Below are positions 44,585-47,717 of a stretch of DNA of 64,000 nt, piece after piece. The position numbers and the translations under genes are program-made. How positions within the stretch are numbered: the first letter of the stretch is position 1; each line of letters starts with the position of its first letter. The DNA is from Rhodospirillaceae bacterium (GTDB lineage Bacteria; Pseudomonadota; Alphaproteobacteria; Bin65), in NCBI GenBank assembly GCA_009840595.1, contig VXNK01000005.1:18467-82466 (forward strand). Reading direction: 5' to 3'. Below the pieces are notes generated by a model. The model was not told the origin of the DNA, did no database searches, and worked only from the letters and a program-made list of their open reading frames with translations.

Positions 44585-45594
44585 CGGAGGGCGGCCCGGC
44601 CGGGTCCGCCGGCCCGGGGCTGCAGGGGGAGCCGCAGACCGATATCCTGATCCCCTTCCGGCTGGAGCGGGCGAACCTGCGCGGCCGGGCGGTCCGGCTC
44701 GGCCCCGCGATCGACGCCATCCTGTCGCGCCACGACTATCCGCCGCCGGTCGCCGACCTGCTGGGCGAAGCGCTGGCGCTCGCCGCCGTGCTGGCCGGCA
44801 CGCTGAAATACGACGGCATCTTCACCCTGCAGGTCAAGGGAGACGGGCCGGTCGGCATGCTGGTGTGCGACGTCACGTCGGACGGCGATCTGCGCGGCTA
44901 TGCCGAGGTCGACGAGGCGGCCTACGCCGCGCTCGGCACGGCGGCGCCCGACGGCCCGGTGCCGCGCCATCTGGGCGCCGGCCATCTCGCCTTCACGGTC
45001 GACCAGGGCCCGGACATGGAGCGCTACCAGGGGATCGTGGACCTGGCCGGCGCGACGCTGACCGAGTGCGCCCAGCATTATTTCCGGCAGTCCGAGCAGG
45101 TCGAGACCCTGCTTCGGCTCGGCGTCGGCCGCCCGGACGGCAGGCGCTGGCAGGCCTCCGCCCTGATGATCCAGCGCGTGCCGATGACCGGCGGGGTCGG
45201 CGGCGGGGCCCTTGGCGGGAGCGGCGCGCCGGCGGCGGACGACAGCGGCCACGCGGACGAGGACCGGCGCGAGGACGACTGGCGGCGCCTCGCCATGCTG
45301 CTCGGCACAGTGCGCAACGCCGAGGTGCTGGCCCCGGATGTCGATCCGCTGCGCCTGCTGCACCGCCTGTTCCACGCGGACGGCGTCCGGGTCTTCGAGC
45401 CGCAGGCGCTGCGCGACCGCTGCCGCTGCTCCGACGACCGGGCGGAGAATGCGTTGCGCATGCTGGACGCGGACGAACTGGCGGACATGACAATCGACGG
45501 CGCCGTGACTGTCGCCTGCCAGTTCTGCAGCCGGGTCCGGCGCTACGACGAGGCGGCGCTGGCCGCGCTGCGGGCCGGCCGGGCGGCGGCCTGA
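44581..45594 (+). CDS. hslO: Hsp33 redox-regulated chaperone
   Basis: [28 protein letters not shown] zinc motif. Confidence 0.95.
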
Positions 45595-45638
45595 TGCGGG
45601 GCCGGACAACGGGCCGGGAGTCCGCAGATACCCGGATA

Positions 45639-45671
45639 TGTCATGCCCCCGATATGTCATGAAATGTCATG
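45639..45671. repeat. TGTCATG x3 (16- and 10-bp spacing) on left flank of REP copy 3
   Basis: Copies at 45639, 45655, 45665. Confidence 0.85.
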
Positions 45672-45701
45672 ATTCGTTATGGCGCGCTCCTCCGCCCCAA
45701 C

Positions 45702-45825
45702 CGTCATTCCGACCGGAGCAGACGCCAGTCCGCGGAGTGGAGGAATCCCGTCGCCGGCTCCCGGGATTTGCAAATCCGTGATCGAGCCGAGATCCCTCCA
45801 CTCGCTCCGCTCGGTCGGGATGACG
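45702..45825. repeat. CGTC-type REP/MITE-like element, copy 3 (inverted relative to copy 1)
   Basis: Reverse complement aligns with 8433-8557 with ~17 differences by hand count, 11 of them in the central loop. Confidence 0.92.
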
Positions 45826-45835
45826 GTTTGGCTCG

Positions 45836-45862
45836 TGTCATGAAATGTCATGATTTGTCATG
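45836..45862. repeat. TGTCATG x3 at 10-bp period on right flank of REP copy 3
   Basis: TGTCATGAAATGTCATGATTTGTCATG. Confidence 0.9.
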
Positions 45863-45889
45863 TTCCGCCGCGCCCTGTCCGCTTGAATA

Positions 45890-45905
45890 GACAGACCGTT
45901 CTATC
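45890..45905. promoter_or_regulatory. 16-bp imperfect palindrome (TetR-operator-like), copy B
   Basis: GACAGACCGTTCTATC followed by 7 nt and T7-GC, the same layout as 8879-8894 on the minus strand. Confidence 0.5.
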
Positions 45906-46208
45906 CATCGTGTTTTTTTGCATTCCGGCCCCACCGTCCGAAACGCCCCGCCGGCCCGAAGTGGCGGAAAACCGCCGAAAACCGCCAGCCGGACGCCTGC
46001 CCGGTTCCGGCTCTTTGAAGGAAAAAATGGAAATAAGGAATACATTCTTTATTCTGTTCATGCTGCGTGGGATTTTTTCCTGCGTCGGGCGGGAGCCGGC
46101 GGGAACCGCAAACGCCGCCCGTTCGTCCGCAAAACCGGACAATGCCGCCCGGACGCCGATCCCGGCCTGACCCGAAACCCTCATTGGACCCCGGACGGAA
46201 CGCGGAAT

Positions 46209-46239
46209 GTTCATATAATGTTCGATTCACAGATGTCAA
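46209..46239 (-). promoter_or_regulatory. Alphaproteobacterial LexA (SOS) box overlapping a leftward sigma70-like promoter
   Basis: GTTC-ATATAAT-GTTC at 46209-46223; TTGACA on minus strand at 46239-46234, -10-like TATATG at 16-bp spacing. Confidence 0.7.
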
Positions 46240-46345
46240 GCCCTGTTGCGCCCATCGCCGGCGGCTTGCGGGACGCCGCGCTTCCCTCACGCGCCGGCCT
46301 TGCACCGAGCCCGGAGTTACACAGGCGGGATACGGCGAACGCCGG

Positions 46346-47032
46346 CTAGCGGTCCCGCGCTTCGCAGTGCTCCCGCTCCATGAAGGCGCGCAATCCCGTT
46401 GCCTCATCCTCAACGAACCGCTCGCCGGTTACGGCGAGGTTCGCCGTGCGGTCGAACCGGAAGGTGCGGAAGTCCTGCCGGAGTTCGCACCAGCCGGAAA
46501 ACATCCAGCCATCGGTCAGGTTCCAGATCGCGAGAGGGCGCACGCGGCGTCCGGTCCGGTTCCCGTCGCCGTCCCGGTAGTCGAACCGCGCGATCTGCCG
46601 CTCGCGGATCGCCCGGCGGAGCAGGGCCACATCCGGCGTTGCGCGGTTTCTGCCCTGAAGATTGAAATAGGGCGCATCGGCGAGCCGGCGCTCCTCCGGC
46701 CGGGGCATGCCGGCCTGGAGTTTCGCGCGCGCCTCGCGGGCCGCCGCCGCCAGCACCGGATCGCCGGCGCTTTCCACGAAGGAAAGGCCCACGGCAAGCG
46801 CATCGACCTGGTCGTGGGTAAACGTCACGTTGGGCAGGTCGAAACCCGGCCGCAGCAGGTAGCCGACGCCGGCCTCGCCTTCGATCGGCAGGCCGGACGC
46901 CTGGAGATGGGCGATGTCGCGATAGATCGTGCTGACGCTGACTTCGAAATGTTCGGCAAGGTCGCCGGCCCGGCTGACGCCGCGGGTCCGCATCTCGTTG
47001 ACCAGCCTGAACAGCCTTTCCGCACGTCTCAT
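46346..47032 (-). CDS. YafY-family HTH-WYL transcriptional regulator
   Basis: MRRAERLF, VSVSTIYRDIAHL, EGEAGVGY, RRVRPL..W....WCELRQDFRTFRFDR. Confidence 0.95.
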   Translation of the reverse strand: MRRAERLFRLVNEMRTRGVSRAGDLAEHFEVSVSTIYRDIAHLQASGLPIEGEAGVGYLLRPGFDLPNVTFTHDQVDALAVGLSFVESAGDPVLAAAAREARAKLQAGMPRPEERRLADAPYFNLQGRNRATPDVALLRRAIRERQIARFDYRDGDGNRTGRRVRPLAIWNLTDGWMFSGWCELRQDFRTFRFDRTANLAVTGERFVEDEATGLRAFMEREHCEARDR

Positions 47033-47047
47033 CGGTTTCGCGCCCGG

Positions 47048-47083
47048 CCCGCATTTCGACCCGGATTTCGGCCCGGCTTTCGA
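47048..47083. repeat. 12-bp triplication between ridA-like gene and WYL gene
   Basis: CCCGCATTTCGA/CCCGGATTTCGG/CCCGGCTTTCGA. Confidence 0.85.
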
Positions 47084-47196
47084 AAATGTCGGGGCACAGT
47101 CTTTCTCATTCCGCGCCTATAGCATGAGATCGGCGGGTCCCGACGGTTCCGGTGCGAAGAGTCGCTCTCCAGGTCGGCCGCGATGCCCGTGGGCAT

Positions 47197-47592
47197 TCAG
47201 TCGGCGGCCGTGGCCTCGATCTCGAACATCAGCGGCGGCAGGGCGAGCCGGGTAACGCCGAGCAGGGTCATCGGCGGCGCGGCGCCGGCAGGCCCGAAGC
47301 GCGATCCGAGAATATCGAAATGCTTCAGGGCTTCGTCCATATCGGTGGTGTAGAGGCTGAGCCGGACAATGTCGGCGAGGCCCATGCCGGCGGCGTCCAG
47401 AACGGCTTCCAGATTGTCGAGGGCGAGCGCGATTTGACGGCGCATGTCTCCCGGGTGCTGCGGGTTGCCATCGGCGTCGACGGAAGTCTGGCCCGCGCAG
47501 ATCAGGCGCCGGTTCGCTCCAACGAGCATTTCGGCCTGGTTGTAGCCGAAATTCAACGACCACGGCCAAGGGTTGACGGCTGTTCTCTTCAT
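47197..47592 (-). CDS. RidA/YjgF/UK114 family protein
   Basis: VNPWPWSLNFGYNQA, AGQTS, ALDNLEAVL, MTLLGVTRLA...FEIEATA. Confidence 0.92.
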   Translation of the reverse strand: MKRTAVNPWPWSLNFGYNQAEMLVGANRRLICAGQTSVDADGNPQHPGDMRRQIALALDNLEAVLDAAGMGLADIVRLSLYTTDMDEALKHFDILGSRFGPAGAAPPMTLLGVTRLALPPLMFEIEATAAD

Positions 47593-47642
47593 GGCTGCTG
47601 CGCCCTCGTCGACAATTCGGAGAGCGCCTGAATGACACAGGC

Positions 47643-47666
47643 CTCCCGTCACCGTGGTGGCAGGAG
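47643..47666. promoter_or_regulatory. Imperfect palindrome upstream of ridA-WYL operon (candidate WYL-regulator site)
   Basis: CTCCCGTCA-CCGTGG-TGGCAGGAG. Confidence 0.5.
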
Positions 47667-47717
47667 CTGTCGCGCCGGAAAGCGAATTACTCCGCCGGAT
47701 CGTCAAGGATCCGGCGA

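Follow-up and report, generated by a model that had tools for sequence, protein, structure and literature searches.

Small genes under LexA control are familiar from several bacteria, e.g. tisB/istR-1 and dinQ/agrB of E. coli and sidA of Caulobacter, where the WYL-family regulator DriD is paired with didA; LexA-controlled small RNAs also exist in other bacteria. Repeats dispersed through intergenic DNA are a second point of reference. Enterobacterial BIMEs and REP mosaics, including the RIP unit with its IHF site, are multi-copy, strictly intergenic and modular, contain long palindromes and a protein-binding site, lie mostly after the 3' ends of genes, and vary in presence and absence between close relatives. 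In Neisseria, the Correia elements (CREE), which are small, dispersed and non-autonomous, supply intergenic DNA with promoters and sites for protein binding, and promoter-bearing MITEs likewise carry ready-made promoters. Closest to the DNA considered here are the SOS promoters of the Alphaproteobacteria (those of Caulobacter, Rhodobacter and rhizobia, e.g. at imuA-imuB-dnaE2), in which a direct-repeat core with an AT-rich spacer occupies the position of the core promoter. The alphaproteobacterial LexA operator is the direct repeat GTTC-N7-GTTC (10.1101/2025.01.26.634973; PMC4211646).

The locus under study lies in a window of 64,000 nucleotides, i.e. the whole stretch of DNA that was analysed (C85:18467-82466 of the source assembly G000, hereafter the source genome, which comprises 4.1 Mb in 168 contigs at 68% G+C and is 98% complete), and consists of a non-coding island of 731 bp (island B, 45595-46325, minus strand) between two genes that serve here as context only, one for a regulator with HTH_11 and WYL domains (46346-47032, minus strand; Pfam) and hslO, encoding Hsp33 (44602-45594, plus strand; Pfam HSP33). 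On the plus strand, positions 46209-46223 read GTTCATATAATGTTC, an exact GTTC-N7-GTTC that lies 123 bp past the stop codon of the WYL gene. Read on the minus strand, the order is TTGACA (46240-46235), the ten nucleotides TCTGTGAATC and GAACATTATATGAAC (46223-46209), i.e. a -35 hexamer followed by a LexA-type operator, the direct repeat GAAC-N7-GAAC, positioned over the -10 region. The 85 bp upstream of the -35 element (46241-46325, minus strand) form the promoter-proximal edge of the island and are conserved with a second genome of the genus, G009, whilst homology with a third, G003, resumes only at about 46326. The first-pass annotation, made from the letters of the window, had described a minus-strand TTGACA promoter with an overlapping GTTC-N7-GTTC and no protein gene; this description holds, with about 610 bp of non-coding DNA downstream that is convergent on hslO.

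A tblastn search of the source genome located a single lexA (C130, about 97-801) and recA (C15), and only one LexA homologue was found. The lexA promoter reads CTTGAC-N9-GAACCAAAGTAGAAC, that of an imuA-like gene (C26) reads CTTGAC-N12-GAACAAATAAAGAAC, and recA carries the upstream box GAACACTTGCGGAAC; further GAAC-N7-GAAC sites precede a radical-SAM gene, a uvrC-like gene and a dprA-like gene. The imuA-like ORF (C26:25763) has its ATG 4 nt after its box, suggesting a leaderless or near-leaderless mRNA. Judged by these promoters, the alphaproteobacterial direct-repeat box is in use in this genome, and the concern that its regulon might employ another motif falls away. Since the lexA and imuA-like promoters share with the module the same -35 element and the same TTGAC/GAAC-N7-GAAC layout, and recA carries the box, the box at 46209-46223 fits a native LexA operator; at the level of sequence, it overlaps core promoter elements as such an operator should. 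A generic sigma-70 scan called no promoter at the box because no consensus -10 is present there, and the promoter assignment therefore rests on the conserved -35 element, its spacing, and a layout shared with the native lexA and imuA promoters. The start of the transcript is predicted at or just past the 3' end of the box, at about 46200-46208. As far as sequence can define one, this is a real gene-less promoter of the DNA-damage (LexA) type.

Within the window a bare GTTC-N7-GTTC is no rarer than chance (one found, 1.8 expected), whereas the composite TTGAC-N10-12-GAAC-W7-GAAC was found once and in none of 100 shuffles. Genome-wide, in spite of the high G+C content, the box with an all-A/T spacer (GTTC-W7-GTTC) occurs at 31 sites, 27 of which belong to one module family. 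These copies were found by the box alone and the search did not require a -35 element, yet every one of the 27 has TTGA[C/T/A] at a distance of 9-13 nt before the box. Their box spacers are ATTATAT (20 copies, giving GAACATTATATGAAC), ATTAAAT (five) and AATATAT (two), and the 10-12 nt that separate the -35 element from the box differ by 2 nt in length and have no conserved sequence. The locus is one of about 27 near-identical portable promoter-operator modules that sit in non-coding repeat islands. Exact matches to TTGAY-N9-13-GAACATTATATGAAC number 11-21 in each of 10 of the 13 genomes of the genus, the three without the module being G004, G010 and G011. All members of the genus are MAGs of uncultured bacteria that bear the label Alphaproteobacteria or Rhodospirillaceae bacterium, and one derives from a sponge. 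Six sister genera, represented by 12 genomes, had no match, and the reversed-pattern control also gave none. Thirty-three metagenome contigs carry the pattern; IMG/VR has none, i.e. no phage copies are present in that collection. The module shares its core, spacer and core-promoter position with the alphaproteobacterial SOS promoters, but differs from them in having no SOS gene and in being present as about 27 paralogous copies, with a nearly invariant box, inside repeat islands. A search of the literature found no description of LexA operators or boxes inside dispersed intergenic repeats.

Constraint on the module was assessed with a genus-wide search for the 15-mer that allowed two mismatches at any position. 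Among the genomes listed there are 31 one-mismatch variants, of which 30 are altered in one of the seven spacer positions and one in one of the eight half-site positions, a split with a probability of ~2e-9 under a binomial with uniform mismatches; this argues for selection on the LexA contacts. In the box-based search, no copy in the source genome that bears a -35 element had a changed half-site. Between the orthologous islands of the source genome and G009, the -35 element and box differ at 0 of 21 positions, whereas 8 changes are found in the 20 positions made up by the adjacent spacer and the 10 nucleotides directly downstream. A wider table of substitutions among orthologues is circular for the box, the loci having been picked by the box, and was set aside; the unbiased searches are the box-only search of the source genome and that with mismatches anywhere. 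Conservation of the -35 element and of the box spacer, which bears the -10 region, suggests that promoter function, too, is under selection. The box spacers might, however, be nearly identical because the copies descend from a recent common ancestor rather than because a -10 is required. RNA polymerase makes no base-specific contact in the spacer between -35 and -10, where the upstream GAAC is located; its invariance therefore indicates a second protein, for which LexA is the obvious candidate. That the constraint is specific to the half-sites across ten species suggests that the copies are doing something that benefits either the host or the element.

These data bear on two readings of the box. 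The first is that it matches the motif by chance, or that it is bound by some regulator that is not LexA, e.g. the repressor of a mobile element or another repressor recognising GAAC repeats; the expected number of bare motifs in the window would permit the former, and a box spacer identical in 20 copies exceeds what LexA is known to need. We regard this as most improbable: the composite pattern is missing from shuffled and reversed controls, the positions under constraint are exactly the LexA half-sites, and core and layout are those of the lexA, imuA and recA sites in a genome with one detected LexA homologue. The second is that the boxes serve mainly as LexA sinks (decoys) at the level of DNA, tripling or quadrupling the high-affinity sites and so tuning the threshold of the SOS response, with transcription irrelevant. 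Constraint on the half-sites, the lack of downstream genes, and the ratio of about 27 module boxes to a handful of canonical ones (lexA, recA, imuA, radical-SAM, uvrC-like and dprA-like) all accord with such a role. A pure decoy, however, needs neither a -35 element, which is kept at a fixed distance in 27/27 copies, nor an orientation relative to downstream modules, which is absolute (see below), and we consider a decoy function of this kind very unlikely.

Downstream of the promoter the predicted transcript would pass in turn through modules B, S and P, three CATGACA repeats, a REP-like hairpin, a second CATGACA array and the 3' end of hslO. Module B (46070-46165, minus strand; GGCGGCATTGTCCGGTTTTGCGG...GGAAAAAATCC) is a separate GC-rich intergenic repeat that also occurs independently, with a copy in the source genome upstream of a holC-like gene (C31:60-151) and five in G001, where it is often found 50-100 nt from contig ends (C51, C77, C29, C18). 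Module S (45931-46069, minus strand) combines an AT-rich patch (46020-46069) with a GC-rich part and is common to C153, C155:1906-2081, G009 and a further genome of the genus, G007; the patch is the most diverged part in the comparison of the source genome with G009. Module P (45886-45930, minus strand) consists of GCAAAAAAACAC, seven nucleotides and a palindrome, and is present in about 36 copies in the source genome. The palindrome is TAGAnAGACCGGTCTnTCTA (on the plus strand, 45887-45904, ATAGACAGACCGTTCTAT), a run of seven T lies at 45913-45919, and there is also a TTGAACGATCG block. The arms of the palindrome vary independently of each other across copies, as would be expected of a DNA site bound by a protein rather than of a hairpin; a terminator scan found no canonical terminator at P in either direction. 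Beyond P lie the proximal CATGACA array (45836-45870, minus strand; three repeats with a 10-bp period), the REP-like long palindromic repeat (45695-45831), of which dozens of copies with 75-86% identity are spread over many contigs, and the distal CATGACA array (45639-45681, minus strand), which adjoins the hslO stop codon.

Two further repeats were observed in the source genome. One, of about 190 nt, is very well conserved in at least ten copies (C6, C8, C15, C51, C90, C135, C136, C138, C139 and C168:105974) and consists of GTGTTTCCAACGATTCCAAAGGGTTAGGGC, an A-run, the P palindrome and AATTCAAAAATCAAGCGATTTCAATGACTTGG, with no SOS box. The other, module Q1 (C70:18870-19000, C9:34800-34960, C101:3340-3450 and others), is found about 80 bp past P in many composites and reads ATTGAACGATCG(C/T)TCAA, a GAAC-N4-GTTC palindrome; it resembles the Gram-positive (Cheo-type) LexA box and in most cases directly adjoins a convergent gene at its stop codon.

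For a view of the whole family, 104 non-redundant copies of the module were compiled from the source genome, G003, G009, other loci of the genus and metagenomes. Downstream of the promoter in these copies, P was found 41 times in the forward orientation and never in reverse, and CATGACA arrays 63 times forward and never in reverse; given this fixed polarity, the promoter is the head of an oriented composite. The bodies between promoter and P differ among copies in both sequence and length. Like BIMEs and REP mosaics, the composites are multi-copy, strictly intergenic and assembled combinatorially from modules that include palindromes; they also contain a putative protein-binding site, mostly follow the 3' ends of genes and differ in presence between close relatives. 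Their sequences are unrelated to those of BIMEs, and they differ in possessing a full predicted promoter with a repressor operator, in their fixed polarity, and in the lack of a RAYT/Y1 transposase. A search of the source genome for the latter (PF01797) gave no match whilst controls matched, and since the assembly is 98% complete its absence is likely, rather than certain.

The genes that follow the module give no indication of a shared function. No co-directional ORF lies within 900 nt in 72 of the 104 copies; the remaining 32 have a co-directional ORF start, in unrelated genes such as rplU, pheT and ivd, and no downstream protein family recurs among the 104 other than as orthologues. In the source genome the next gene is convergent for 17 copies and co-directional for nine, the latter being unrelated housekeeping genes that include rplU, pheT and those for two acyl-CoA dehydrogenases, an integrase and a FAD protein, at distances of at least 280 nt. 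Neither here nor across the copies does a co-directional gene of damage function lie within leader distance of the box.

Some of these neighbourhoods merit separate mention. Module copies precede rplU by 393 nt (C155:33013; the encoded L21 ends in a long tail rich in Lys and Ala) and pheT by 294 nt (C157:31474); if not insulated, they would cause damage-induced read-through into housekeeping genes. At C101:3270-5050 a copy with promoter, P, Q1 and CATGACA repeats lies 303 nt upstream of a gene for a tyrosine integrase of 474 residues, an arrangement that is orthologous in G006 (L125); the integrase may belong to a genomic island and be SOS-gated. An identical GTTCGATAAATGTTC box is present at two contig ends of the source genome (C43:2480 and C94:132), beside a fragment resembling the small subunit of phage terminase, and may belong to a LexA-controlled prophage or GTA-like region.

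A promoter without a gene that adjoins a WYL gene invites the explanation that it is the relic promoter of an SOS gene since lost from here, as the first-pass annotation suggested, or else a target of the neighbouring, DriD-like regulator. Comparison with relatives speaks against both. In G003 the WYL gene is kept (92% identity) and only 50 bp separate its stop codon from that of hslO, an empty site that contains neither island B nor any gene remnant. G009, conversely, has the whole of island B at ~90% identity with the promoter intact and no gene in it, but has neither the WYL nor the adjacent RidA-like gene. G007 carries a different island, in which the box (spacer AATATAT) abuts a 94-nt remnant of the WYL gene (window 46784-46877), and in other members of the genus hslO is followed almost directly by a comA-like gene. 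The WYL gene is present in 2 of the 13 genomes of the genus, against 10 of 13 for the module, and the two are not co-inherited. From the comparisons with G003, G009 and G007 it follows that there was no deleted SOS gene and that there is no coupling to the WYL regulator. As the module is, moreover, an orphan at most of its 104 sites, we find the relic or WYL-target explanation hardly credible.

The WYL and RidA-like genes form a two-gene indel (window 46346-47706, compared with L015, L017 and L018): both are present in the source genome and G003, the RidA-like gene is kept in G007, and both are absent from G009 and three other members of the genus. A segment of about 150 bp with 12-bp tandem repeats upstream of the WYL start (window 47043-47192) is absent from G003.

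Island B is thus a presence/absence polymorphism within the genus, and other islands behave similarly. At least 10 of the 14 copies in G009 are at loci where the source genome also has a copy, and G003 has islands where the source genome has 46-54 bp, so that presence and absence are reciprocal; shared loci together with filled and empty sites indicate that the islands are old, mostly stable, and gained or lost as blocks. By eye, neither TIR nor TSD was visible in three filled/empty pairs, the boundaries of which are blurred by divergence. The module resembles Correia elements and other promoter-bearing MITEs as a small dispersed repeat with a ready-made (here predicted) promoter and a putative site for a protein. 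It would differ from them in lacking TIR and TSD, and does so in that its promoter appears to be repressor-gated and that most copies face no gene.

We next consider what the promoter might produce. An unrecognised small protein, e.g. a division inhibitor similar to SidA or DidA, or a type I toxin, possibly translated leaderless from the ATG within the box, had been envisaged in part by the first-pass annotation. The ATG inside the box at 46209-46223 does open a frame of 118 codons, the imuA-like gene offers a near-leaderless parallel, and the small damage-induced proteins SidA and DidA of Caulobacter provide a precedent (PMC4211646). Across copies, however, the frames that open at the box ATG or at an ATG just after it run from 3 to 118 codons, are unrelated to one another and Arg-rich, and yield no shared peptide; orthologues have no conserved frame. 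Pfam searches of ORFs inside the island gave no matches, and the 65-codon ORF of the island starts within the AT-rich patch of module S, the part least conserved between the source genome and G009. The peptide reading is consequently not borne out, and we judge a small protein extremely improbable.

A locus-specific regulatory RNA, induced by damage and with its own function, either as an sRNA or as an antisense transcript to the 3' end of hslO, accords with the conservation of promoter and whole island at ~90% between the source genome and G009, with the existence of LexA-controlled small RNAs in other bacteria, and with the direction of the promoter, which faces hslO with no terminator predicted between the two. 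The properties of the putative transcript fit it less well. The fold of the 329-nt predicted transcript is no better than that of shuffled sequences (z = -1.05), RNAalifold on 16 copies with P and Q1 gave energies of 0.0 in the forward and -1.8 in the reverse direction, i.e. no consensus structure on either strand, and an Rfam search of 45500-46450 at a permissive threshold returned only noise. Moreover, the body is a patchwork of repeats that are found elsewhere (B, S, P, the arrays and REP), varies between copies from promoter to P, and is lacking in G003. A regulatory RNA with a function specific to this locus is accordingly unlikely; a damage-inducible non-coding transcript is possible, without there being a locus-specific sRNA gene. 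The locus resembles tisB/istR-1, dinQ/agrB, sidA and DriD/didA in being a short, putatively damage-inducible unit that lacks a classical repair gene and, here, has a WYL gene next door, but differs from them in the lack of a conserved peptide, RNA fold or co-occurrence with WYL.

The explanation that we favour, and think probable on the strength of the sequence comparisons, is that the locus is a LexA-gated orphan promoter from which an oriented, mosaic array of intergenic repeats, one of a genus-specific family, extends, and in which either damage-gated transcription or LexA occupancy is what has been selected. The module reproduces the layout of the native lexA and imuA promoters and is dispersed in about 27 copies per genome, as the head of gene-less mosaics of B, S and P modules, CATGACA arrays and REP hairpins. 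In undamaged cells LexA bound at the box would block RNA polymerase; upon DNA damage, RecA-stimulated cleavage of LexA would free the promoter, and a non-coding transcript would start just past the box and cross the island in the direction of the hslO 3' end. That LexA binds and represses, that damage induces, and how far this transcript runs are inferences from sequence. As the transcript would contain neither a conserved ORF nor a conserved fold, the selected feature would be the act of LexA-gated transcription, or occupancy by LexA, and not a product.

A more specific version, which we offer tentatively and do not expect to hold, is that the composites constitute an undescribed class of non-autonomous, oriented intergenic elements with their own LexA switch, for which damage-gated transcription through P, CATGACA and REP sequences is the selected activity. 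If this were true, such transcription might license the gain or loss of the islands themselves, much as integron integrases and ICEs are gated by LexA, or antisense transcription of, or read-through into, about 27 unrelated neighbours might wire housekeeping loci into the SOS response.

For this locus, these results mean that neither an SOS gene nor a peptide is hidden in the island and that no circuit links a WYL regulator to LexA, and SOS regulons deduced from motif matches alone are unsafe in genomes of this kind. If LexA does bind the modules, most of the LexA operators in these genomes would be located at gene-less promoters, about 27 compared with a handful of canonical sites. The reshaping of regulatory networks by the dispersal of repeats is well known from the transposable elements of eukaryotes; here, again if LexA binds, a bacterial transcription-factor network would have been reshaped in the same manner.
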